A stretch of 64,000 bases of DNA from an uncultured Planctomycetia bacterium (lineage in GTDB: Bacteria; Omnitrophota; Gorgyraeia; 2-02-FULL-51-18), in assembly GCA_964373505.1 (NCBI GenBank), contig CAYJVC010000001.1, positions 41,630 to 105,629 on the forward strand, written 5' to 3'. Under the pieces are notes generated by a model. The model had not been told where the DNA came from, searched no databases, and saw only the letters and a program-made list of their open reading frames with translations. Made by a program: the position numbers and the translations under genes. Shown piece by piece: positions 3,025 through 46,442 of this stretch. Every line of letters starts with the position of its first letter. The stretch's first letter is position 1.

Positions 3025-3140
3025 ATGACCCCACCCCCTCATTTTGAGGCGGACTGTTTTTGGGGTTTTTTGAGTCGTATTTGATTCGCCTCGACGCGCT
3101 TTGCGCCTCGGCGCGTAGCGCAAATGAGGGGGTGGGGTGA
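3025..3140 (+). repeat. Structured intergenic element copy E1: arms CCCCACCCCCTCATTT / AAATGAGGGGGTGGGG, right arm contains lysS GTG start
   Basis: 16-bp perfect inverted repeat (3029-3044 vs 3122-3137) flanking ~77 nt of GC hairpins. ATGACCCC at left, GGGGTGA at right. Confidence 0.8.
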
Positions 3141-6546: not shown

Positions 6547-7421
6547 GCCTTAAGATATTTTTAAATGACCGATTGGTGGACAAAGAGGACGCGAAGGTGA
6601 GCGTGTTCGACCACGGTCTTTTGTACGGCGACGGTGTGTTCGAGGGCATTCGCTCCTACAACGGCCTCGTGTTCAAGCTGGACGAGCATCTGGACCGACT
6701 GTTCGAATCCGCGCACACACTGATATTGGAGATCCCGATGACGAAGTCCGAGCTTGAGAAAGCGATCATTCGCACCTTAAAAGCCAATCGTTTGAAGGAC
6801 GCGTACATACGGCTCGTCGTGACGCGCGGCGTGGGAGACCTAGGGCTTGACCCAAGAAAATGCCGCCGCTCGACACTTTTCATCATTGCGGACAAGATCG
6901 CGCTGTACCCGAAGGAATATTATGAAAAGGGACTCGAGATCGCCACGGTGCCGACCGTACGTAACCACCCGGAGGCGTTGAATCCGCAGCTCAAAACATT
7001 GAATTACCTGAACAATATTTTGGCGAAGATCGAGGCGACGAGCGCCGGCGTGGATGAAGCAATCCTGCTGAACAGCCAGGGCTATGTCACCGAGTGCACG
7101 GGCGAGAATATATTTTATGTGAAGGGCCGGTCGATTATCACGCCGCCGCCCTATGTCGGGATCTTGAAGGGGATCACGCGCAGCGTTGTCATGCGCCTCG
7201 CCCGGCAGCTCGGGTTCAACGTGAAGGAAGATGTGTTCACGCGGCATGAGCTTTATACGGCGGACGAGGTTTTCCTCACCGGCACGGCGGCCGAGATCGT
7301 GCCTGTCGTCCAGATCGACAATCGCCGGATCGGGAACGGGAAGCCGGGCAAAACAACAGGGATTCTCACAAAGGAATTCAGAAAGCTGACGCCCAAAGAA
7401 GGAGTGAAGTACCGGGTATGA
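6543..7421 (+). CDS. ilvE: Branched-chain amino acid aminotransferase (class IV PLP fold)
   Basis: 292 aa. DHGLLYGDGVFEGIRSYNG, ...EAILLN..G.V.E....N.F.V motifs of class IV aminotransferases. Confidence 0.75.
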   Translation: MSLKIFLNDRLVDKEDAKVSVFDHGLLYGDGVFEGIRSYNGLVFKLDEHLDRLFESAHTLILEIPMTKSELEKAIIRTLKANRLKDAYIRLVVTRGVGDLGLDPRKCRRSTLFIIADKIALYPKEYYEKGLEIATVPTVRNHPEALNPQLKTLNYLNNILAKIEATSAGVDEAILLNSQGYVTECTGENIFYVKGRSIITPPPYVGILKGITRSVVMRLARQLGFNVKEDVFTRHELYTADEVFLTGTAAEIVPVVQIDNRRIGNGKPGKTTGILTKEFRKLTPKEGVKYRV

Positions 7422-7945
7422 GCTGCGACGAATGCGGAAAAAATAAGGCGACCGTTCATCTCACCGAGATTATCAACGATCAGATCACGAAGCTGAACCT
7501 CTGTGAGACCTGCGCGAAGGAGAAAGGTTCGGACGTGGAACAGCATTTCGGAATCGGAGACCTTTTGGCCGCGCTCTCCGACACGCACACAGCCTCGGCG
7601 ACCGCGGAAGCGCCGGCGATGAAAGGCCGATGCGCGCAGTGCGGGCTGACGTATGATGATTTTAAGAAAATCGGCCGCCTCGGCTGCAGTGACTGCTACA
7701 ACGCTTTCAAACCGAGCCTTGCGCCGCTTCTTAAGAAAATTCACGGATCCAATCAGCATTTGGGCAAGTCCCTTAGCCCGCAGGCGCTCAGTGAACTCAA
7801 GGTTTCTTCCAAGCATCACGATGAGCTTGAGCTCGTGAAGCAGGAGCTTCAAAAGGCGGTGAAGAATGAGGAGTTTGAGGAGGCGGCCGCGCTCCGCGAC
7901 AAGATCAAGTTTCTGGAAAAGAAGATAAAAGAGGGCAAGGCATGA
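7418..7945 (+). CDS. mcsA: McsA-like protein (CxxC zinc-finger pairs + UVR domain), activator of protein-arginine kinase
   Basis: CDECG, CETC, CAQCG, CSDC motifs then UVR motif EEFEEAAALRDKIKFLEKK. Directly upstream of mcsB. Confidence 0.7.
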   Translation: MSCDECGKNKATVHLTEIINDQITKLNLCETCAKEKGSDVEQHFGIGDLLAALSDTHTASATAEAPAMKGRCAQCGLTYDDFKKIGRLGCSDCYNAFKPSLAPLLKKIHGSNQHLGKSLSPQALSELKVSSKHHDELELVKQELQKAVKNEEFEEAAALRDKIKFLEKKIKEGKA

Positions 7946-8058
7946 CCCCATCCCCTCCTTTTTTATTTAGAGAATTGATGAATCCGCCCGCGGCGGGTTC
8001 ATGCGCCGTTTCCCGGATGATGAGTATTGAAGCGGCGCAAAAGGAGGGGATGGGGTGA
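7942..8058 (+). repeat. Structured intergenic element copy E2: arms CCCCATCCCCTCCTTTT / AAAAGGAGGGGATGGGG, bridges mcsA stop (ATGA) and mcsB GTG start (GTGA)
   Basis: 17-bp perfect inverted repeat (7946-7962 vs 8039-8055). Inner hairpins GCGCCG..CGGCGC, ATGAA..TTCAT. An element-spanning 38-codon ORF runs from ATG 7942 to TGA 8056. Confidence 0.8.
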
Positions 8059-9113
8059 GCGTCAAAGTGGACTCCTTATTGAAGCAGACCTGCGAGTGGT
8101 TGAGGGGCACCGGGCCCAATTCCGAGATCGTCCTGAGCTCCCGCGTGCGGTTGGCAAGGAATCTCGAGAAGGCATCGTTTCCCCATTGGGCCACGAAAAA
8201 GCAGGAGAAGGAAACACTGGAGCTTCTGGATGCGGCGCTGCGGCACGTGGACCTCATGAAAGGGAGCTTGTTCGTCCGCATGACGGAGATCGATGACGTG
8301 GACAAGCAGTTCCTCTTGGAAAGGCATTTGGTGAGCCGTGAGCACATGATGCACGCGGAATCCAAGGCGGTCGTGATAGGTGATAAGGAAGTGATCAGCA
8401 TCATGATCAATGAAGAGGACCATCTGAGGATCCAGGTGATCCAGTCCGGGTTTAACCTGCAGGAATGTTGGCGCATCGCCAACCGCCTCGACGACGGGCT
8501 TTTAAAAAGAGTGAAGTTCGCGTTCCATCCGGAATGGGGTTATTTGACGACATGCCCGACCAACACGGGAACGGGCCTTCGGGCGTCTGTGATGCTGCAC
8601 CTGCCGGCGCTCGTGATGACCAAACAGATCTCGCGCGTGGTCCAGGCGATTTCGAAACTCGGCATGACGGCGCGCGGCCTTTACGGGGAGGGCACGGAGG
8701 CCGAAGGAAATTTCTTCCAGATATCCAACCAGGTCACGATGGGATCGCCTGAGGAGGACACGATCGATAACTTGGAGCGCATTATCCGCCAGGTGATCGG
8801 GCATGAGGAAAACGCGCGCAAGACCCTGATGAAACAGAATCGCGAGGTGCTTCAGGACAAGATCTGCCGCGCGAACGGCACTTTGAAAGCCGCGCACATT
8901 ATCAGCACCAAAGAGATGATGGGTCTGCTCTCTATGGTGAGACTTGGCGTGGACATGGGGGTGATCGCCGACATCGACCGCCGGGCTGTCAACGAGCTTT
9001 TTATTTTGACGCAACCGGCGCATTTGCAAAAGATCGAGGGGAAAATGCTCAGCTCCACGCAGCGCGACGTTAAAAGAGCAAATTTGATCCGTCGGCGTCT
9101 TGAGGGACGGTAG
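8055..9113 (+). CDS. mcsB: Protein arginine kinase McsB (ATP:guanido phosphotransferase)
   Basis: 352 aa. N-term ...GPNSEIVLSSRVRLARNLEKASFP, phosphagen-kinase catalytic CPTNTGTGLRASVMLHLPAL. Confidence 0.85.
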   Translation: MSVKVDSLLKQTCEWLRGTGPNSEIVLSSRVRLARNLEKASFPHWATKKQEKETLELLDAALRHVDLMKGSLFVRMTEIDDVDKQFLLERHLVSREHMMHAESKAVVIGDKEVISIMINEEDHLRIQVIQSGFNLQECWRIANRLDDGLLKRVKFAFHPEWGYLTTCPTNTGTGLRASVMLHLPALVMTKQISRVVQAISKLGMTARGLYGEGTEAEGNFFQISNQVTMGSPEEDTIDNLERIIRQVIGHEENARKTLMKQNREVLQDKICRANGTLKAAHIISTKEMMGLLSMVRLGVDMGVIADIDRRAVNELFILTQPAHLQKIEGKMLSSTQRDVKRANLIRRRLEGR

Positions 9114-9139
9114 TCCTCCTTCGCGAAGGCTTCGGAGGA
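9114..9139 (+). other. GC hairpin with alternative foldings immediately after mcsB stop (possible terminator/stabiliser)
   Basis: TCCTCC-TTCGCGAAGG-CTTCGGAGGA. CCTTCGCGAAGG is a perfect palindrome, and CGAAGgCTTCG is an alternative stem sharing CGAAG. Confidence 0.4.
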
Positions 9140-9146
9140 TAAAGTT

Positions 9147-9180
9147 GTTTTGAATTCATTTTTGTAATGTTATGATAAAG
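9147..9180 (+). promoter_or_regulatory. Possible promoter with extended -10 (TGtTATGAT) upstream of clpC
   Basis: AT-rich 60 nt between hairpin and clpC ATG. tgttatgat with weak -35 candidates (tttgaa/ttttga). Confidence 0.25.
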
Positions 9181-9201
9181 AACATCCAGGGGCCTTAAGT
9201 C

Positions 9202-11682
9202 ATGTTCAACAAATTTACGGAACGGGCCAGGAAAGTGATCCTGCTGGCCAAGCAGGAGGCCAAGCGTTTCAATCACGATTACATCGGCACCGAGCACATT
9301 TTGCTCGGGCTTTTACGCGAGGGTGAGGGTGTCGCGGCCGCGGTGCTTCAAAGCCTCGGCATGAATCTCAACAATATCCGGCTCGAAGTGGAAAAATTAG
9401 TACAGTTGGGGCCCGCCACCGTGGTGTCGGGTGACCTGCCTTTCACGCCGAAGGCCAAGAAGGTGATGGAGATCGCAATGGAGGAGGCCCGAAACCTCGG
9501 CCACAATTATATCGGCACTGAGCATTTGTTGCTGGGGCTCATTCGTGAAGGCGAAGGAGTCGCGAGCCAGGTTTTCATGAACATGGGCCTTGACCTTGAA
9601 AAGGTGCGGGAAGAAGTGATCAAGCTTTTGGGTTCCACGACCCCCGGTTCGCAATACGGCCCCGGGCCCGCTCAAGGGCCTACGCCTTCAGGGCCTCCTT
9701 CTTCCTCTAAGACTAAAACACCGGCGCTGGATGCGTTTGGACGCGACCTGACACGGCTTGCGCGCGATGGGAAATTAGATCCTGTGATCGGCCGTGACGA
9801 GGAGATCGACCGCGTGATGCAAACACTCTCGCGCCGCAGGAAAAATAACCCCGTGCTTCTCGGCGAGGCGGGTGTGGGAAAGTCCGCGATCGTCGAGGGC
9901 TTGGCGCAGAAGATCGTGAGCGGCGACGTGCCGGAAATCTTGAAAAATAAACGGCTCATCACTCTGGACCTGGCGCTCATGGTAGCCGGGACGAAGTACC
10001 GCGGGCAGTTCGAGGAACGCATCAAGGCCGTGATGGATGAGATCAAGCGCTCGGAAAATATCATCATGTTCGTGGATGAACTCCACACGCTCGTCGGCGC
10101 GGGCGGCGCGGAAGGCGCGATCGACGCCGCGAATATTCTGAAGCCCGCGCTGGCAAGGGGCGAGATCCAGTGCATCGGCGCGACGACATTCGACGAATAC
10201 CGCAAGTACATTGAAAAGGACACCGCGCTTGAGCGGAGGTTCCAGACGATCATGGTGGATCCGCCGTCGGTCGAGGAGACGATCCTCATCCTGAGAGGGC
10301 TTCGGGACAAGTACGAGGCGCACCACAAGGTAAAGATTACGGATATCGCGCTTGAGGCGGCCGCCAAGTTTTCGGACCGCTACATTGCTGGCCGATTTCT
10401 GCCGGACAAAGCGATCGACGTGATCGATGAGGCCGGCGCTTACGCGCGTCTTTCGACCCACACCACGCCTCAGGATGTAAAGGAGCTTGAGAAAAAACTC
10501 GAGCTCTTAAGGCGGGAGAAAGAAGACACGATCAAGGAGCAGGATTTCGAGAAAGCCGCGGCCTTGAGGGACCAGGAGCGCGAGATACGGCGGCAGCTGG
10601 ACAAGACCAAAAAGGAATGGATGGAGTCGCGATCGAAGATAGAGCTTGAGATAGGCGAGGAGGATATCGCTCGGGTCATCGCGAAGATCACAGGAATTCC
10701 GATCTCAAGGCTCGAGGAAAAAGAAACCTCGCGCTTGTTGCGTATGGAAGAGGAGATCAAGAAGCATGTGATCGGCCAGGATGAGGCGATCGCCGCGATT
10801 TCCCACGCGGTCCGCCGTTCGCGCGCGGGGCTCAAAGATCCCCGCCGGCCGATCGGTTCGTTCATTTTCCTGGGGCCCACCGGCGTCGGCAAGACGCTTT
10901 TGGCCAAGGCGCTCGCAGAGTTCATGTTCAACGATGAGAGCGCGCTCATCTCGTTCGATATGTCGGAATACATGGAGAAGTTCAACGTCTCGCGGCTCGT
11001 GGGCGCGCCGCCCGGCTACGTGGGCTACGAAGAGGGCGGCCAGTTGACCGAGAAAGTAAGGCGTCGTCCGTACTGCATTGTGCTTTTGGATGAGATCGAA
11101 AAAGCGCACCCGGACGTGTTCAACATGCTGCTTCAGGTGCTGGAAGAAGGTCGCTTGACGGACTCGCTGGGCCGAAAGGTCGATTTCCGGAACACGGTGC
11201 TGATCATGACGTCCAACATTGGCGCGGAACTTCTGAAGAAACAGGGCAGCATCGGTTTTAAAGCGCAAGAGCAGTCCACCGACTACAAGGAAATGAAAAC
11301 GCGTCTCTTGGAAGAGACCAAGAAGGTCTTCAAACCTGAGTTCATCAACCGCGTGGACGATATCATCGTCTTTCAGAAACTCACCAAAGAGGACCTCGAC
11401 AAGATCATCGATATTGAGGTTGAAAATTTGAGAAAGAGACTCGGTGAGCGGGGCATTGAGATCCAACTCGATCAGAAGGCCAAAGATTTTCTGATCGCCC
11501 GAGGTTTTGACCTGATGTACGGAGCGCGCCCGCTGAAGCGCACGATCCAGCGTTACTTGGAGGATCCGCTCGCCGAAGAGATCATTTCAAAGAAGATCCG
11601 CACGAATGAAATGGTTCAGGTCACGGTCAAAGACGACGACCACCTCGTTTTTGAGCAGAGCGCGAAGATTTCAACATCCTAA
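9202..11682 (+). CDS. clpC: ATP-dependent Clp protease ATP-binding subunit ClpC (two Clp_N repeats, two AAA+ modules, UVR linker)
   Basis: 826 aa. Clp_N repeats, Walker A GEAGVGKS and GPTGVGKT, middle-domain UVR motif. Confidence 0.9.
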
Positions 11683-20071: not shown

Positions 20072-20697
20072 GCGAAAGGGGTATTTTGATCACATTTGAG
20101 GGCGGGGAAGGCAGTGGCAAGTCCACTCAGGTGAAGCTGCTTTACCGCTATTTGAGGAAACGTGGTCGCCGTGTTTTCTTGACGCGTGAGCCGGGCGGCA
20201 CGAAGATCAGCGACAAGATCCGTAAAATCCTGCTGGATAAAAAACACAATCGGATGACGCCACTTTGCGAAACGCTGTTGTACATGGCAAGCCGCGCGCA
20301 GTTGGCCGAGGAAGTGATACGCCCGAAGTTTAAGCGGGGTTTTATCGTGCTGTGCGACCGGTGGCTCGACGCGACACTGGCTTACCAAGGGTACGGCGCC
20401 GGCGTGGATATCCGCTGGATTCAGTCTTTGGGCCGGACCGCGACCGCGGGCATCAAGCCTAAATTGACCGTTTTTCTGGACCTGCCGGTCGAGTTGGGGT
20501 TGCGCCGCGCCAAAAACCACGGGCCCGCGGACCGGATGGAAAGGAAGGCGCTTTTGTTCCATAAAAAAGTACGCGCCGGTTATCTTGCCATTGCTAAGAA
20601 AGAACCAGGCCGCATACGCCGTGTTCTGGTAAGGCCCAGGGATAGCGCGCACGAAGTATTTGAGAAAGTGAAAAAGGCGGTTCGCCGTGTCATTTAG
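20068..20697 (+). CDS. tmk: Thymidylate kinase
   Basis: ILITFEGGEGSGKSTQ P-loop, TREPGGT, LID region. ATGA-type overlap with cysS stop. Confidence 0.9.
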   Translation: MSERGILITFEGGEGSGKSTQVKLLYRYLRKRGRRVFLTREPGGTKISDKIRKILLDKKHNRMTPLCETLLYMASRAQLAEEVIRPKFKRGFIVLCDRWLDATLAYQGYGAGVDIRWIQSLGRTATAGIKPKLTVFLDLPVELGLRRAKNHGPADRMERKALLFHKKVRAGYLAIAKKEPGRIRRVLVRPRDSAHEVFEKVKKAVRRVI

Positions 20698-21559
20698 GGA
20701 ACTCAAAGATCAGCCGAACGTCATCCCGGCGATCAAGGCTGCGCTCGAAAAGGGGCGTTTGGGGCACGCGCTTTTGTTTCAGGGGGGTTCCGATTCGGCC
20801 TCCCGCGAAACAGCGATGGAGCTTGCAAAAGCGCTTTTCTGCGAGGATCTCAAAGAATGGGAGTCTTGTGACGCGTGCCGCCCCTGCCGGCTGGTGGTCC
20901 GCAACGCGCATCCGGATTATCTCAAGGTGTCCCCGCTCGAAGGTTCCGAGGTCGTGAAGATCGGGCAGATCCGGGAGCTTGTGGCGACAGCCAATCTCAA
21001 GCCTTTTGAAGCGCGCTCCAAGCTCTTTGTGATCGATCCGGCCGAGGCGATGAATGAAGAGGCGCAGAGCGCATTCCTTAAGACGCTCGAGGAGCCTCCG
21101 GGGTCCACGCGCTTTGTTCTCATCACCCGGAATCCGGCGGGACTTCTCGAAACCATTCGCTCGCGCTGCCGGCTATTTTCTTTTGCGCCTTCGCGTGAAG
21201 CAGCCTCGAAAGACCCGGAGCTTGAGGGCCTGAAGCGGGAGGCGACCGAGATTTTTCTATCACGAGGCGAGCGGCGTACGCCGGGTCTTCCGGATCTGGC
21301 CAAGTTTGAGCGGGAAGAGGTTCAGGAGCTTTTAGACACGCTCATGGAGTATTTCCGGGATTGTCTCCTCATCCGGGTGGGGGCGGACGCGATGCTTTCG
21401 GGGGAGGAAGATCTTAGCCGCAAACGCAGGGTTGCCGGCGAACGAAGCGAGACCGAGCTTCAAGACTTGATCCAATTTTTTTCAGAAATAAAGGAAAAAG
21501 TTTCCGAAAAGGTGAACTTGAAGCTTGTGGCGTCGGCGCTTTGGGAGGCGGCACCGTGA
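20687..21559 (+). CDS. holB: DNA polymerase III delta-prime subunit
   Basis: AAA+ clamp-loader fold with degenerate Walker A, Zn module CxxC..C..C, SRC-like arginine finger motif SRCRLFSF. Confidence 0.75.
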   Translation: MSFRELKDQPNVIPAIKAALEKGRLGHALLFQGGSDSASRETAMELAKALFCEDLKEWESCDACRPCRLVVRNAHPDYLKVSPLEGSEVVKIGQIRELVATANLKPFEARSKLFVIDPAEAMNEEAQSAFLKTLEEPPGSTRFVLITRNPAGLLETIRSRCRLFSFAPSREAASKDPELEGLKREATEIFLSRGERRTPGLPDLAKFEREEVQELLDTLMEYFRDCLLIRVGADAMLSGEEDLSRKRRVAGERSETELQDLIQFFSEIKEKVSEKVNLKLVASALWEAAP

Positions 21560-21628
21560 CCCCGCCCCCTGATCGTAACGGTCGCGAAGCGATCGGTCGC
21601 CATGGCGACCGATCAGGGGGTGGGGTGA
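21556..21628 (+). repeat. Structured intergenic element copy E3: arms CCCCGCCCCCTGATCG / CGATCAGGGGGTGGGG (one G-U wobble), between holB stop (GTGA) and metG GTG start
   Basis: Arms 21560-21575 vs 21610-21625. Inner perfect 24-bp palindrome GATCGGTCGCCATGGCGACCGATC shares CGATC with right arm. Element length 69 nt keeps left GTG in frame with metG. Confidence 0.8.
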
Positions 21629-23187
21629 AGTGCTACCTGACGACCCCGCTTTATTACGTGAATTCGAAGCCACACATCGGGCATTCGTACACGAATATCG
21701 CGGCCGATACGCTGGCGCGCTTCAAGCGGCTCCAAGGGAATGACGTGCTTTTCCTGACAGGCACCGACGAGCATGGTCAAAAAATAGTCAAGGCGGCGCA
21801 AAGCGCCGGCATGGAGCCGGGCCCCTTCACGGATAAGATGTCGATGACATTCCGCGATCTTTGGAAAACGCTCGGCATTTCCCACGACGATTTTATCCGG
21901 ACGACGGAGCCGAGACACCGGGAGGCCGTGCGCCACGTTTGGACAGAGCTTCAAAGAAAAGGAGACATTTATACGGCGGCCTATAAGGGCTATTACTGTA
22001 CGCCCTGTGAGACATTTTTAGCCGACGAGTACGTGCGCCAGCAAAAGGCGGCGGGGCAGGAAATCGTTTGCCCGGACTGCAAGCGTCCGGTCGAGCGGAT
22101 TGAGGAGAATAATTTCTTTTTTAAAACATCACCATACCAGGACTGGTTGATCGGCTGCGTCGAGAAAAACGAGCCGATGAAGGTCCTCCCCGACACGCGC
22201 CGCAACGAAATACTCGGGTTTTTGCGCACGAACAAACTGGAAGACCTTTGTATTTCAAGGCCGAAGAGCCGGCTCGCCTGGGGTATCGAGTCGCCGCTTT
22301 CACAGGAGCACGTGACCTACGTCTGGTTCGACGCGCTCATCAATTACATTTCCGCCTGCGGTTACGGGGACCCCAAAGCCGCAGAGAGGTTCCAAAAATG
22401 GTGGCCCGCCGATGTGCACGTCATCGGCAAGGACATCCTGCGCCAACATGCGGTTTACTGGCCGATCCTGCTGCACGCGCTCGGGCTCGACCTTCCAAGA
22501 CTGATCTTTGCACACGGTTGGTGGGTGCAAGGCGGCGAGAAAATGTCAAAATCCAAGGGTAATGTTATAGATCCCGCCGAGATAGTAAGGTGTTACGGCG
22601 TTGACGCGTACCGTTATTTTCTCTTGAGTGAAACACCCTTTGGGCAAGACGGTACTTTTAGCGAGGAAGCTTTGACCCAGCGTTTTAACCGTGATCTTGG
22701 CAATGACCTGGGAAATCTTTTGCACAGAACACTGACTATGTGTGAAAAATACTTTGAGGGGGAGATCCCGAAAGGGATTTCAGCCCGATGCGACGGCCAG
22801 CTTCGGCAGAGCGTGAATGAACTCGCGCCGGCGCTCGGACCGATGATGGAAAGGCTTGCGTTTTCAGAAGCGCTTTCGGTGGTCTGGTCGCTCGTGAACC
22901 AAGCCAACAAGTCGATAGAAGCAGCGGCGCCATGGACTTTGTACAAAGAAGGTAAAACCCAAGAGCTTAAAGCCGCCGTTGTGTCATGGCTTGAAGCATT
23001 GAAGGCCATTGCGCAGGCGGTGTGGCCTTTTATGCCGGCTACCGGCGAAGCCATTTGGAACCAGCTCGGCATAAAGGAAAAACTTTGGAAAGAGCCGTTT
23101 AAGGAAAACCTATGGGGTTTTTTTGAAAAGGGCGGCCGCATTCAAAAGGGTGCGCCGCTTTTTCCCCGCATAGAAACTAAGAAATAA
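21625..23187 (+). CDS. metG: Methionyl-tRNA synthetase (short form, no C-terminal tRNA-binding extension)
   Basis: VKCYLTTPLYYVNSKPHIGHSYT (HIGH region), KMSKS (KMSKSKGN), Zn knuckle CTPCE..CPDC. ORF caller start 21541 is an N-terminal over-extension through element E3. Confidence 0.9.
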   Translation: MKCYLTTPLYYVNSKPHIGHSYTNIAADTLARFKRLQGNDVLFLTGTDEHGQKIVKAAQSAGMEPGPFTDKMSMTFRDLWKTLGISHDDFIRTTEPRHREAVRHVWTELQRKGDIYTAAYKGYYCTPCETFLADEYVRQQKAAGQEIVCPDCKRPVERIEENNFFFKTSPYQDWLIGCVEKNEPMKVLPDTRRNEILGFLRTNKLEDLCISRPKSRLAWGIESPLSQEHVTYVWFDALINYISACGYGDPKAAERFQKWWPADVHVIGKDILRQHAVYWPILLHALGLDLPRLIFAHGWWVQGGEKMSKSKGNVIDPAEIVRCYGVDAYRYFLLSETPFGQDGTFSEEALTQRFNRDLGNDLGNLLHRTLTMCEKYFEGEIPKGISARCDGQLRQSVNELAPALGPMMERLAFSEALSVVWSLVNQANKSIEAAAPWTLYKEGKTQELKAAVVSWLEALKAIAQAVWPFMPATGEAIWNQLGIKEKLWKEPFKENLWGFFEKGGRIQKGAPLFPRIETKK

Positions 23188-28197: not shown

Positions 28198-29335
28198 GCG
28201 CGTGAATTCCCCCCTTTGTACGGCGTGGGTCGAAGTCGACCTTGGCGCGCTACGGAATAATTTGAGACTTATCCGGAGGCGCATTCGGAAGGGCCGGACG
28301 CAAATACTCGCGGTGGTGAAAGCGGACGCCTATGGGCACGGAATGAAGTCCGTCGCAAAGGCGCTGGCCCGGGAGGGTGTGGGTTTTTTTGGTGTCGCCA
28401 ATATTGACGAGGCCATGGAGCTGCGGAGCGTCTGCCCCAGGCAAAAAATCCTCGTGCTCGGGAGCTTTCACGCGAGTCAACTGCTTTTTTTCATTCGCCA
28501 CCGCATCCTGCCGACTGTTTCTTCGGTCGGGGACATCCGGACCTTGGCGCGCACGTTAAGATCTCGAACGTCCCCGTTTCCGGTCCACGTGAAGATCGAC
28601 ACGGGCATGGGCCGGTTGGGGGTTTGGCACGAGGAGATCGAGCCTTTTTTTAAAATTTTAAAGCAGAATCCGAACGTGGGGGTCGAAGGTATTTACACGC
28701 ATTTTTCAAGCGCCGACAAAAAGGATAAAAGATTCACCCGGAAACAGCTCACGGACTTCGGCCGCGCGGTCCAAAAAATAAAGACGCTTGGCTTCCACCC
28801 CCGGTATATTCATGCAGCCAACAGCATGGGCCTCCTCCGCTTTACGAACGCGCATCTTAATCTTGTGAGGCCCGGGATCGTTTTGTATGGTGTTCAGCCC
28901 GATCGGCGCCTGGCGAAACTAGCGGGACTTAAACCCGTTATGTCGCTTAAAACACGGGTGTGCTTCCTTAAGGATGTGAAAAAGGGCTCGAGCATCAGTT
29001 ACGGCGCTTCGTATGTCACGCCCCGCGCGACGCGGATCGCGACGCTTCCCATCGGTTACAGCCATGGTTACCGTGTCGGATTTTCCAACAAGGCGTTTGT
29101 GCTGATCCGTGGCCGGAGGTATCCGGTGGTGGGGCGGGTGACGATGGACCAGACACTTGTGAACGTGGGCCCCGGGGCACGCGTCCGTCGTTGGGAGACG
29201 GTGACCCTTATCGGGCGTGATAACGGAGCGGTTATTTCAGCCGAAGATCTTGCGACGTTGGCGGGAAGCATCCCCTACGAAGTTGTTTGTTCCATCCACA
29301 GCCGCATCCCGCGGCTCTACAAGGGTGTTCGCTAG
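28187..29335 (+). CDS. alr: Alanine racemase
   Basis: PLP-Lys motif VVKADAYGHG, C-terminal beta domain. Confidence 0.9.
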   Translation: MAGKRVNSPLCTAWVEVDLGALRNNLRLIRRRIRKGRTQILAVVKADAYGHGMKSVAKALAREGVGFFGVANIDEAMELRSVCPRQKILVLGSFHASQLLFFIRHRILPTVSSVGDIRTLARTLRSRTSPFPVHVKIDTGMGRLGVWHEEIEPFFKILKQNPNVGVEGIYTHFSSADKKDKRFTRKQLTDFGRAVQKIKTLGFHPRYIHAANSMGLLRFTNAHLNLVRPGIVLYGVQPDRRLAKLAGLKPVMSLKTRVCFLKDVKKGSSISYGASYVTPRATRIATLPIGYSHGYRVGFSNKAFVLIRGRRYPVVGRVTMDQTLVNVGPGARVRRWETVTLIGRDNGAVISAEDLATLAGSIPYEVVCSIHSRIPRLYKGVR

Positions 29336-29405
29336 CCCCATCCCCTGTTTCCTGCGATCGCAAAGCGATCGGTCCACAGAGCGGAGGAAACAGGGGATGG
29401 GGTGG
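29333..29405 (+). repeat. Structured intergenic element copy E4: arms CCCCATCCCCTGTTTCC / GGAAACAGGGGATGGGG, followed by T-rich tract (terminator-like) after alr
   Basis: 17-bp perfect inverted repeat (29336-29352 vs 29384-29400). Inner TGCGATCGCA palindrome. Shares 12-mer AAGCGATCGGTC with E3. GTG in right arm not followed by a plausible gene. Confidence 0.8.
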
Positions 29406-29414
29406 TTCTTTTCT

Positions 29415-29443
29415 TTGGACAGCACTTTATTTCATGTTATAAT
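29415..29443 (+). promoter_or_regulatory. Near-consensus sigma70-type promoter TTGGAC-N17-TATAAT for the ilvB operon, in an AT-rich 130-nt leader
   Basis: ttggac(29415-29420), 17 nt, tataat(29438-29443). 11-bp palindrome ATTTACTAAAT at 29450-29460 near predicted TSS. T8 run at ~29492-29500. Confidence 0.5.
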
Positions 29444-31216: not shown

Positions 31217-31354
31217 TGAATAAATCCGAAGCACGAAATCCGAAATCCGAAACACAAAATTCAAAACAAAGGTTTCGGTCATTCGAATTTAGGGTTTCGA
31301 ATTTGTTTCGTGCTTCGTGCTTCGAATTTAGGATTTAGCACGAAAGGAGGATTT
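31217..31354 (+). repeat. AT-rich repeat-laden spacer between ilvB and ilvN: tandem CGAAATC x3, TTCGAATTT x3, TTCGAATTTAGG x2, forming a ~35-nt imperfect inverted repeat
   Basis: Left half AATCCGAAGCACGAAATCCGAAATCCGAAACAC is near-reverse-complement of right half GGTTTCGAATTTGTTTCGTGCTTCGTGCTTCGAATT. GC ~35% vs ~58% flanks. Confidence 0.6.
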
Positions 31355-44429: not shown

Positions 44430-46359
44430 CGCGGCCAAAGTCGCGCGGTGGATCGTTCACCGGCTTCCACTGAAGCAGTCCTTGTTTCTGGCCCGCGTGA
44501 TCGGCCGAGTGATCTATGCTTTCAACAAACGTAAGCGAGTGGCCTATCAGAATTTAAGGGCGGCGTTCGCGGGCGAGAAGTCCCCGTCCGAGCTTAAGGC
44601 AATCTCAAAAAAGTCGTTTGAGAATCTCGTGATGGCGATCGCGGAGTTCCTGCGCGTGCCGGACATGGACCGCGCCTATTTGGACAAGCACGTGCGCTTC
44701 ATGGGACTTGAGAAATTCCGAAGCCGCTTGCAAGAGAAAAAGGGTCTTATTTTTCTGGCTGCGCACTTTGGGAACTGGGAGCTATTGAGTGTCGCGGGCA
44801 GCATCCTGGGATTTCCAATGGTCGCGCTTGCGCGGGTCCAAAAACATCCGCGATCCGACGCGTTCCTAAATTCCTTAAGGACATGCAAAGGCGCCTCCGT
44901 GATCCACAAGGGCATGCCGCTGCGGGAGATCCTGCGGTCGCTTAAAGACGGCAAGATTGTCGGGATCTTAAGCGACCAGGACGGCGGGCGGAGCGGCACT
45001 TTCGTGAAGTTCTTTAGTCGCTGGTCGTCGACACCGGGAGGCGTGTCGACATTTGCGATGCGCACGGGCTCGCCTATTTTCCCGGTGTTCATGTTCCGCG
45101 AAGGGATCACCGAGCATCGTGTGGAGGTAGAAGGGCCTCTCCAGATGCCGGCCGAGAACTTGAGTCATGAAAAATGCGAGAAAATGGTCCTGCAGCAATT
45201 TGCGGACCTGCTTGAAAAAAAGATCCGGAAAAGCCCTGAGCAATGGCTTTGGGCGCATCGCCGCTGGAAGTCGACTCCGGACCGCTCGGTGATCCTCTTA
45301 AGCGACAAAAAGCAAGGACACCTGAACCAGTCGTTGGCCGTGTTAGAGGCGATCAGGAAGGAGCGTGCCACAAAAGGCTGCGGGCCGGAACATACGCGCT
45401 CCCAAATCCTCGAGGTCCAATACCAAAACCCACGGCGCGAGAAGCTGTTCAGGGCCCTGGCCATTTTATTTTCCGGGCATATTCCCTTTAAATCAAAGAT
45501 ACTCCGGTGGGTGTTGTCGGACCCTACCTACGCCGCGGTCACCCGCACTTATGCGGACATCGTGATCTCCTGCGGCTCGTCACTCTCCGCGCTGAATCTA
45601 CTCGTTAAAGATCTGAACGTTGCCAAATCCGTCGTGATCATGAAACCTCCTTTTTCAACGAAACGTTTTGATCTGGTGATCGCTCCCGGGCATGACCGCT
45701 TAAAGCCGTCCGGCAATGTGTTTGTCACCCGCACAAGTCCTTCACTCGTTTCGGAAGGATACCTGAAAGAGCGGGCCGAATATTTTGCTAAGAGCCTGGA
45801 GGAGCTCAACGGTTCCAAGCGCATTGGTCTTCTCGTAGGCGGCGACACAGAGCGCCTGAAATTTTCAAAAGAGTATTTGGAAAAATTCTTGGAACGTCTG
45901 GGCCGTTTCGGCGCCGAGTCCGGCGCTCTCATCTTAGCGACTTCCTCGAGGCGCACGCCGGCCTGGGCGGCCCAGCTCATGAAAGAATTGTTCAAGGACC
46001 GTAAGCGATGTCCGCTTCTTGTGATCGCGAACGAATCCAATGCCGACGGGGTTGTCGGCGGCATTTTGGGCTTATCCGATGCGGTCGTGGTTTCCGGCGA
46101 GTCGATATCCATGGTGTCGGAAGCGGTCTCTTCGGGGAAACCCGTACTCGTATTCATGCCTTCGGACCGGACGCGTGTAAAGCCTAAACACGAGGACTTT
46201 TTGAGACGCCTGGAGAAGGAAAGATTGATCGTGCGGGCCGGCCCGGACAATATTTCGGGGGCCTTGGAGAACTCCCTGAGCCGACCGGAGCGCGCGACCC
46301 CGGTGTTCTCGGGGGATCTGGATGTGTTGAGTGAAGCGGTGAAAAAGGTGGCGGGATGA
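44392..46359 (+). CDS. Bi-domain protein: lipid A late acyltransferase (LpxL/HtrB family) fused to an ELM1/DUF1022-like domain
   Basis: N-terminal ~290 aa LPLAT acyltransferase (HFGNWE catalytic HX4D-like), C-terminal ~350 aa ELM1-like putative nucleotide-sugar transferase (GHLNQS..., VIMKPP). Confidence 0.65.
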   Translation: MKKILLEDALILSAAKVARWIVHRLPLKQSLFLARVIGRVIYAFNKRKRVAYQNLRAAFAGEKSPSELKAISKKSFENLVMAIAEFLRVPDMDRAYLDKHVRFMGLEKFRSRLQEKKGLIFLAAHFGNWELLSVAGSILGFPMVALARVQKHPRSDAFLNSLRTCKGASVIHKGMPLREILRSLKDGKIVGILSDQDGGRSGTFVKFFSRWSSTPGGVSTFAMRTGSPIFPVFMFREGITEHRVEVEGPLQMPAENLSHEKCEKMVLQQFADLLEKKIRKSPEQWLWAHRRWKSTPDRSVILLSDKKQGHLNQSLAVLEAIRKERATKGCGPEHTRSQILEVQYQNPRREKLFRALAILFSGHIPFKSKILRWVLSDPTYAAVTRTYADIVISCGSSLSALNLLVKDLNVAKSVVIMKPPFSTKRFDLVIAPGHDRLKPSGNVFVTRTSPSLVSEGYLKERAEYFAKSLEELNGSKRIGLLVGGDTERLKFSKEYLEKFLERLGRFGAESGALILATSSRRTPAWAAQLMKELFKDRKRCPLLVIANESNADGVVGGILGLSDAVVVSGESISMVSEAVSSGKPVLVFMPSDRTRVKPKHEDFLRRLEKERLIVRAGPDNISGALENSLSRPERATPVFSGDLDVLSEAVKKVAG

Positions 46360-46442
46360 CCCCATCCTCTCCTTTGAAATTTTCAATTTTAGCGCGGTGC
46401 GCTGAGGCGACTTTGTCGCCTCGAAAGGAGGGGATGGGGTGA
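46356..46442 (+). repeat. Structured intergenic element copy E5: arms CCCCATCCTCTCCTTTG / CGAAAGGAGGGGATGGGG (one U-G wobble), bridges acyltransferase stop (ATGA) and GT4-GT9 GTG start (GTGA)
   Basis: Arms 46360-46376 vs 46422-46439. Inner perfect hairpins AGCGCggtGCGCT and GAGGCGACtttGTCGCCTC. An element-spanning 28-codon ORF runs from ATG 46356 to TGA 46440. Confidence 0.8.

Follow-up and report, generated by a model that had tools for sequence, protein, structure and literature searches.

The holB and metG genes of the 64,000-nt stretch of DNA analyzed here (the window), which methionyl-tRNA synthetase (MetRS) homologues place in Candidatus Omnitrophota, are separated by a 66-nt palindromic sequence designated E3. 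With a probability of about 0.7, E3 is best read as a small, non-autonomous, palindromic mobile element of Candidatus Omnitrophota, resembling MITEs (miniature inverted-repeat transposable elements), which inserted into the GTGA shared by holB and metG, duplicated the TGA and left both genes usable. The initial annotation had taken E3 for one copy of a repeated element, and further copies with the same ends are indeed present in the window and elsewhere.

The insertion is seen by comparison of filled and empty sites. In a neighbor-joining tree of MetRS the window clusters with P0002 (locus L099, filled), P0005 and P0007. The last two (loci L113 and L114) have a plain ATGA overlap, ..GCCTCATGAAGTATTACCTC.. 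and ..GTCCATGAAATATTATCTC..; metG reads ATG AAR TAT TAY after holB ..TGA, and in the junctions ..TCATGAAGTATTAC.. and ..CCATGAAATATTAT.. the ATGA is followed directly by AGTATTAC.. and AATATTAT.. (MKYYLTT). The window reads ..GCACCGTGA[66 nt]TGAAGTGCTACCTG.. (..CCGTGA[66 nt]TGAAGTGCTAC..), and removal of the element and one TGA yields GTGAAGTGCTAC, which encodes MKCYLTT. The same excision at every other copy restores what looks like a usual N-terminus of the family that sequence or Pfam points to: MKFYLTT, MSEKFYLTT, MTFLFACGGTGGH for MurG, MIEVRF for YbeY, MTEPNDLI for LysRS and MNVLQILPEL for GT4, in addition to those of apparent CoaE, LptF/G-like and BolA-like proteins. The holB-metG junction is also without the element in L101 and L102-L104. 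Because two close relatives have the plain ATGA overlap, E3 is a precise insertion with the TGA duplicated. TGA is found on both sides of 13 of the 14 copies compiled, and the empty L113 and L114 junctions hold one TGA; an element that carries one TGA and inserts beside a TGA is equally compatible with these data.

Coordinates are those of the window, E3 and the other window copies are described on the + strand, and gene names are from Pfam matches. The holB open reading frame (ORF; 20687-21559, DNA_pol3_delta2 match) ends within cGTGAcccc on the TGA at 21557-21559, the left copy of the duplicated target triplet, which is single at empty sites. The GTG overlapping this stop (21556-21558) is the ancestral metG start, as indicated by the ATGA of the relatives and by the public gene call. 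Its Shine-Dalgarno (SD) sequence GGGAGG (21543-21548) lies inside the 3' end of holB, 7 nt before the GTG, and L113 and L114 have GGGGAG or GGAAAG at the equivalent position ahead of ATGA. The left terminal arm CCCCGCCCCCTGATCG (16 nt, 21560-21575) pairs with the right terminal arm CGATCAGGGGGTGGGG (21610-21625) at a predicted probability of ~1.0. The right arm contains an SD-like G-run (21616-21620), and its final G is the first base of the right GTG (21625-21627; VKCYLTTPLYYVN), which the N-termini of 120 MetRS homologues identify as the canonical-length metG start. This codon is composed of the last G of the element and the TG of the right TGA copy (21626-21628), recognized from filled and empty sites, and is built likewise in 13 of 14 copies. 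Between the arms lie the inner hairpin A (CGGUCGC GAA GCGAUCG, 21579-21595), present in the minimum free energy and centroid structures and common to the copy E4 (71% identity between E3 and E4 over 48 nt), and a perfect 24-nt palindrome, GATCGGTCGCCATGGCGACCGATC (21591-21614), for which ~0.004 occurrences per 64 kb are expected by chance according to our own arithmetic. Of this palindrome only the central part, hairpin B (21596-21609), is predicted when the outer stem is closed. The observations on which the initial annotation was built are confirmed: the position of the holB stop, the pairing of the arms over 16 positions with one G-U, the sharing of the last 5 nt of the palindrome (CGATC) with the right arm as its first 5 nt, and the 69 nt without a stop that keep GTG 21556 in frame with GTG 21625.

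Five copies with conserved termini were observed in the window, versus 0 expected. The family reads NTGA-CCCCRYCCCCT...AGGGGRYGGGG-TGA (consensus of the ends, CCCCRYCCCCTNNTTT), with a 16-bp terminal stem and two to three inner hairpins; copy length is 66-110 nt, well under ~300 bp and too small for a transposase gene. E1 (3025-3140, element 3029-3137; ATGA, 109 nt, TGA) is located at the lysS start and has no overlapping gene upstream. E2 (7942-8058, element 7946-8055; ATGA, 110 nt, TGA) occupies the mcsA-mcsB junction and contains a 38-codon frame from ATG to the right TGA. E3 (element 21560-21625) is flanked by GTGA and TGA. E4 (29333-29405, element 29336-29402; TAG, 67 nt, TGG) follows just after the alr stop. 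E5 (46356-46442, element 46360-46439; ATGA, 80 nt, TGA) lies between a lipid A acyltransferase/ELM1-like gene and a GT4-GT9 glycosyltransferase gene, with a 28-codon frame terminating on the right TGA. Four of the five thus have NTGA immediately to the left and TGA immediately to the right, and all five have an outer stem of 16-18 bp closing two inner hairpins.

At least nine further copies were found in Omnitrophota-like DNA by searches that imposed no TGA flanks, and the 14 copies compiled represent nine independent lineages. L026 and L046 were obtained from a pattern scan of genome contigs with CCCCATCCCCT..AGGGGATGGGG, L099 and L100 via MetRS homologues with 'MTP..' extensions, and L105, L106, L109, L107 and L112 from a metagenome scan (L108 is the reverse complement of L107). 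Among the matches listed from the genome scan, only L026 and L046 belong to this family, the rest being mostly unrelated G/C-tract palindromic repeats. All nine outside copies have NTGA...TGA flanks on the gene strand. Mean column identity is 87% over the aligned stretch among L026, L046 and L100, which come from one assembly (CAYZGM01), and 91% among L105, L106 and L109 from one metagenome (OBEQ01); in both sets the likeness runs from the left TGA to the right TGA, and flanks and loci are unrelated. The fold z-scores of the copies range from -5.5 to -10.5, with an outer stem of 16-18 bp and two or three small hairpins. Contiguous terminal complementarity is exactly 16 bp in ten copies and 16-18 bp in 13, the exception being L099 with 10 bp up to the first mismatch. 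As the element at the CAYZGM01 holB-metG junction resembles the other copies of that genome and not E3, we infer three separate insertions at the filled metG junctions rather than a single old one. A protein search with three concatenated in-frame peptide variants gave nothing at E <= 10.

The assembly CAYZGM01 (GCA_964478015.1) is labeled 'uncultured Planctomycetia' by NCBI. It shares the cysS-tmk-holB-metG-nifS-tatD synteny, and its MetRS is 60% identical to that of the window. Nearly all named homologues alongside which this MetRS was retrieved belong to Omnitrophota/Omnitrophica; the NCBI label may be mistaken. At the holB-metG junction of another relative (L116:738-847; P0100, GCA_021733565.1) a different 104-nt insert is flanked by TGA...TGA and lacks the CCCC/GGGG ends. 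Its removal gives ATGAGCAAATTC (MSKFYLTT), the frame of the left ATG runs open through 35 codons to a stop exactly at the right TGA, which overlaps a TTG start, and there is no significant overall fold (z = -0.56). The insert represents a decayed copy or, alternatively, a second family under the same rules.

The right-hand GTG opens the long ORF of a conserved gene in 13 of the 14 copies (MetRS three times, MurG, YbeY, LysRS, McsB, a GT4 glycosyltransferase, and apparent CoaE, LptF/G-like and BolA-like proteins). At nine of these 13 start sites a long upstream frame ends on the left TGA in a true stop/start overlap; at E1, L106, L109 and L112 the upstream gene is absent or ends earlier. Since the upstream overlap is not universal, the common denominator is a start codon followed by A. 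The window holds 59 genes, is 94.5% coding and has 114 intergenic TGA/TCA sites; even with every gene offering such a site, at least 13 of 14 copies would fall at gene starts with a probability of ~8e-6 at most. The pattern is not explained by mere tolerance of insertions between genes; it calls for targeted integration or for selection against other positions. The frame of the old start is without an internal stop in 12 of the 13 start-site copies, corresponding to eight of nine independent lineages, where 4.1 are expected by interior shuffling (P(>=8) = 0.004). The start-to-start distance is a multiple of three in E3, L099, L100, L026 and L046, which gives an in-frame fusion. It leaves a remainder of 2 in E2, E5, L105, L106, L109, L107 and L112, where a short ORF ends on the right TGA overlapping the GTG, and a remainder of 1 only in E1, the copy without an upstream gene.

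The RNA of 21550-21640 is predicted to fold at -60.3 kcal/mol, against -35.6 +/- 3.7 kcal/mol for shuffled sequences (z = -6.65; 0 of 200 shuffles as good). The predicted stem joins 21559-21575 with 21610-21626, and the right arm is freed in the model when the left arm is constrained to be single-stranded. At the left edge, holB keeps its TGA stop and the ancestral metG start is preserved together with its SD sequence. The right arm contributes the SD-like G-run and, with its final G, completes the new GTG. In the mechanism proposed, a 16-17 bp mRNA stem would hide this GTG, and ribosomes ending holB or starting at the old GTG would melt the left arm. For E3, one route would be in-frame read-through to a MetRS with 23 additional N-terminal residues, and the other would be initiation at the freed right-hand start, giving MetRS of native length. 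In sister copies with a remainder of 2, a short relay ORF would end on the right TGA overlapping the GTG, with termination and re-initiation. In copies with CCCCRCCCCC arms (21560-21571 and 3029-3040) the frame of the old start opens with M-T-P-P-P (MTPPPD in E3); copies with CCCCATCCCC arms read MTPSP in place of MTPPP. Polyproline is a stall motif that needs EF-P, and a ribosome paused at MTPPP would keep the left arm open. The proposed route agrees with two established models of translational coupling, RNA unfolding and re-initiation (PMC12548453).

A broader proposal is tentative and is given somewhat less than even odds: that these elements are selfish hairpins homing to translation starts in Omnitrophota, which would integrate within the first-codon NTGA and become invisible to translation through the upstream TGA stop, a fusion or relay ORF, and a ribosome-binding site of their own. 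The preference for start sites could reflect a targeting mechanism rather than survival alone. If start-homing is true, nature would have provided in this family a portable cassette for translational coupling, and mobile DNA would have a new means of colonizing genomes that are ~95% coding.

Several points weigh against a mobile element at home on start codons. The sample is small (14 copies in nine lineages), and E4, with its TAG and TGG flanks, is the only copy off a start codon. For E3 taken singly, an open frame is to be expected from chance (P(open) = 0.71). L099 and L100 came to notice by the in-frame extension of their proteins, which introduces an ascertainment bias, and the rarity of lengths with a remainder of 1 is not significant by itself (estimated P ~0.14). 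The window contains only paired short copies, and neither a transposase nor a full-length parent element bearing such ends turned up there. Finally, coupling is reportedly less efficient where strong structure stands immediately behind a stop codon, so that the hairpin is possibly costly and not neutral (PMC12548453).

A cis-regulatory hairpin, whatever its origin, might instead be retained by host selection for a job such as strict coupling through a hidden SD sequence and start, an RNase III or other processing site, or REP-like protection of the 3' end of the upstream mRNA. Placement at gene starts far beyond the prediction from tolerance alone is consistent with such a role, as are the position of E4, which is that of a terminator, and the retention of inner hairpins despite differing sequence, with some compensatory changes among the CAYZ copies. 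The arms covary across lineages (CCCCGCCCCC, CCCCACCAC and CCCCATCCCC each have a matching partner); this does not discriminate, because a transposase would also require identical ends. Known RNase substrates include the Correia and ERIC elements (PMC10969869). Opposed to host selection are the patchy occurrence of the element at holB-metG among close relatives and the lack of any functional relation among the genes served. There is also no U-run after E3 (GUGAAGUGCUACC follows the stem), and a simple terminator scan called no site there. The stem measures 16-17 bp, and classical RNase III substrates are nearer 20 bp. A host-selected hairpin is regarded as unlikely, and insertion of a MITE-like element is retained as the preferred reading.

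The initial annotation had stated that ORF callers over-extend MetRS, which is real in public annotation: the NCBI protein of this metG (P0001, 543 aa) begins with MTPPPDRNGREAIGRHGDRSGGGVKCYL at GTG 21556 and is 23 residues longer than the canonical form (28 for the longest ORF). About 110 of 120 MetRS homologues begin 12-19 residues before HIGH, equivalent to GTG 21625 (M..YYLTTPLYYVN). As the left GTG is the ancestral metG start with its own GGGAGG 7 nt upstream, the extended MetRS may really be made, rather than being a mere annotation error. It is nevertheless very improbable that E3 has no identity of its own and is simply coding sequence, forming an N-terminal extension of MetRS specific to this lineage. 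The frame is open from GTG 21556 behind a good SD sequence, public annotation calls the extended protein, and two relatives likewise have in-frame extensions. However, the likeness of the three extensions is confined to arm-encoded residues (MTPP/MTPS...GG(D)GV), this DNA also stands before unrelated genes in two frames and is once intergenic, and the extension is missing in about 110 of the 120 homologues. The sequence is possibly translated, yet it is no evolved protein domain.

Scarcely any weight is given to a riboswitch-like metG leader, in which the inner palindrome and the outer stem would toggle metG translation. The initial annotation had regarded the two helices as mutually exclusive, and the palindrome and the right arm do overlap by 5 nt; among the suboptimal folds, one at +4.5 kcal/mol contains the full palindrome. 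In the partition function, however, the first 14 outer pairs have a probability of 1.0 and the outer 4-5 palindrome pairs a probability of ~0, and of the palindrome no more than the 5 bp at its center are formed, as hairpin B adjoining hairpin A. The helices are not mutually exclusive, because 11 outer pairs survive when the palindrome is forced and coexist with its 10 inner pairs. At the same junction, the elements of L099 and L100 have a wholly different interior, and L101, L102, L113 and L114 have none; the same element also precedes unrelated genes. Rfam at the gathering score gave no family match for the window and nine related loci, and a permissive E-value on 21500-21700 returned only generic hairpin noise. 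Like riboswitches, E3 is predicted to be structured RNA just ahead of a start codon, but its family differs in the absence of a conserved aptamer, of conservation at orthologous sites and of an Rfam match. The switch is not supported and is already largely refuted.

In bypass systems such as T4 gene 60 and the mitochondrial 'byp' GC-hairpin elements, ribosomes hop over a stretch of mRNA. A programmed bypass from the left ATG/GTG to the right GTG, aided by the SD-like run just ahead of the landing site, is hardly credible here: the take-off and landing codons match and are both read by initiator tRNA, and a stable hairpin starts immediately past the take-off codon, but skipping would make the open frame and the length class irrelevant, yet the frame is open above chance, no in-frame stop lies behind the take-off codon, and one residue leaves no possible nascent-peptide signal.

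The family agrees with the descriptive characters of MITEs, in so far as sequence can tell: in size and lack of coding capacity, in its terminal inverted repeats (16 bp in ten of 14 copies), in the target-site duplication deduced from filled and empty sites, and in dispersed similar copies with unrelated flanks (five in 64 kb; the 87% and 91% sets). Correia elements duplicate TA. The Correia (NEMIS) elements of Neisseria and the ERIC elements are likewise of small size, with terminal inverted repeats, short duplicated flanks, dispersed copies and no transposase coding; they are co-transcribed with their neighbors and form stable mRNA hairpins able to affect expression (PMC10969869). The Omnitrophota copies differ in that they sit on NTGA start codons, often in 4-nt overlaps, bring an SD-like run and complete a GTG. 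Neither 'start codon' nor 'stop codon' occurs anywhere in a 2024 review of prokaryotic MITEs (PMC10969869). Our literature searches yielded no account of a family of this kind or of repeats in Omnitrophota.

Rickettsia palindromic elements (RPEs) are mobile palindromic repeats that are tolerated in frame and free of stops within reading frames, and give fusion proteins (PMC10969869). The likeness lies in a palindromic mobile repeat tolerated in frame. RPEs lie inside Rickettsia genes, add internal peptides and have a conserved peptide, whereas the family described here has five in-frame fusions, all at the first codon and in an Omnitrophota host, adds N-terminal extensions or relay ORFs, and regenerates the start; its peptide is conserved only where the arms encode it. 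The family is set apart from RPEs by this description. REP/REPIN/BIME sequences, which RAYT (Y1) transposases mobilize, are also dispersed hairpin-rich palindromes within operons or after genes and may act on mRNA stability or translation. A conserved GTAG or CGTC tetranucleotide heads the 20-40 nt REP palindrome (PMC3733652), but the ends here are CCCCRYCCCC without GTAG or CGTC, with 16-bp inverted ends, a multi-hairpin interior and duplicated TGA flanks. No RAYT was among the Pfam labels of genes in L100-L104, although no search was aimed at RAYT. Coupling by RNA unfolding is exemplified by phage f1 VII/IX, MS2 coat-lysis and E. coli rpmI-rplT (PMC12548453). As predicted for E3, the downstream SD sequence and start in these examples are paired with a segment that the upstream ribosome covers or melts; for E3 this sequestration is found in silico only. 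The putative Omnitrophota device differs in riding on a repeated mobile sequence instead of belonging to one operon.

For annotation, recognition of the element corrects gene calls to which false or unverified 'MTP(P/S)P...G(G/D)GV' extensions of essential proteins, among them MetRS, MurG and YbeY, or spurious mini-ORFs, have been added. For genome biology, the family would illustrate how mobile DNA persists in very compact genomes by occupying the start codon and rebuilding each disrupted signal. The unfolding and re-initiation models could be tested in nature on the matched filled and empty junctions of related genomes, and the compact cassette of stop, hairpin, SD sequence and start could suit synthetic operons.

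E4 is followed (29403-29443) by the T-rich GGTTCTTTTCTTT and then by a strong promoter-like site of ilvB, TGGACA-16-TATAAT, with 11 of 12 matches and a TG extension. E4 may serve as the alr terminator, judging from its sequence context; a simple terminator scan called nothing at E4 despite the T-rich tail. The relative L101 has the same TTGGACA...TATAAT right after the alr stop and no element. In the window, 55 of 59 greedily called genes are on the + strand, the strand on which the TGA flanks of the element copies are read. E2 splits mcsA from mcsB in a row (7418-11682) composed of an mcsA-like gene (UVR motif), mcsB (ATP:guanido phosphotransferase) and an 826-aa ORF whose length, position and synteny with L100/L102 suggest clpC. 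In the interval that separates the ilvB stop from the following gene there is a long, imperfect inverted repeat (31217-31335) not related to the CCCC..GGGG family; AATCCGAA / TTCGAATTT and TTCGTGCTTCG units are iterated in it, and its arms (31221-31245 and 31306-31330) are 84% complementary.

Three further readings of the copies were considered and rejected. A hammerhead-like reading of CUGAU...GAAA in some copies had no Rfam support. An orientation bias of the interior as a sign of strand-specific transposition was discarded, short copies being stop-free both ways and only 3+3 copies being informative. An asymmetry of wobbles and mismatches in the arms as a sign of RNA-level selection was also discarded, as two of three informative positions favor sense RNA and one antisense.

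Palindromic repeats with CCCCATCCCCT...AGGGGATGGGG ends and non-TGA flanks are common in unrelated phyla among the matches listed (L001-L095). Examples are from Chitinophagaceae (CCCCATCCCCTAAAGGGG..), Sphingomonas (CCCTC-CCCCATCCCCTCCCGCCTGCGGGAGGGG..), Saprospiraceae/Lewinellaceae, Prevotella and Chloroflexaceae, some of them from Bacteroidota. A 76-nt perfect palindrome, CCCCACCCCCTCGTTTGTTCCCGCCCCCTCGCGGGGGCG joined to CCCCCGCGAGGGGGCGGGAACAAACGAGGGGGTGGGG, is nested in the inverted flanks cccaccccctatgtt...gaacatagggggtgg at L110:949-1024 and L111:1825-1900; its end decamer is common with the family, and it has no TGA flanks and is therefore a different element. Several metagenome-assembled genomes of Chitinophagaceae/Sphingobacteriales have a conserved GAGCCGAG..TTGGTTGTAACAGT.ACT.TTGGTTCGTA between GGGGATGGGG hairpins, with similar flanks (tttcaa.tttgc ... 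gctttt.ttttt), at L009:251-335, L025:7531-7615, L027:3156-3243, L032:4402-4486, L041:892-976 and L078:287-371, and in reverse orientation in L017, L047, L063 and L075. The conservation of sequence and flanks suggests a conserved small RNA or a locus-specific element.

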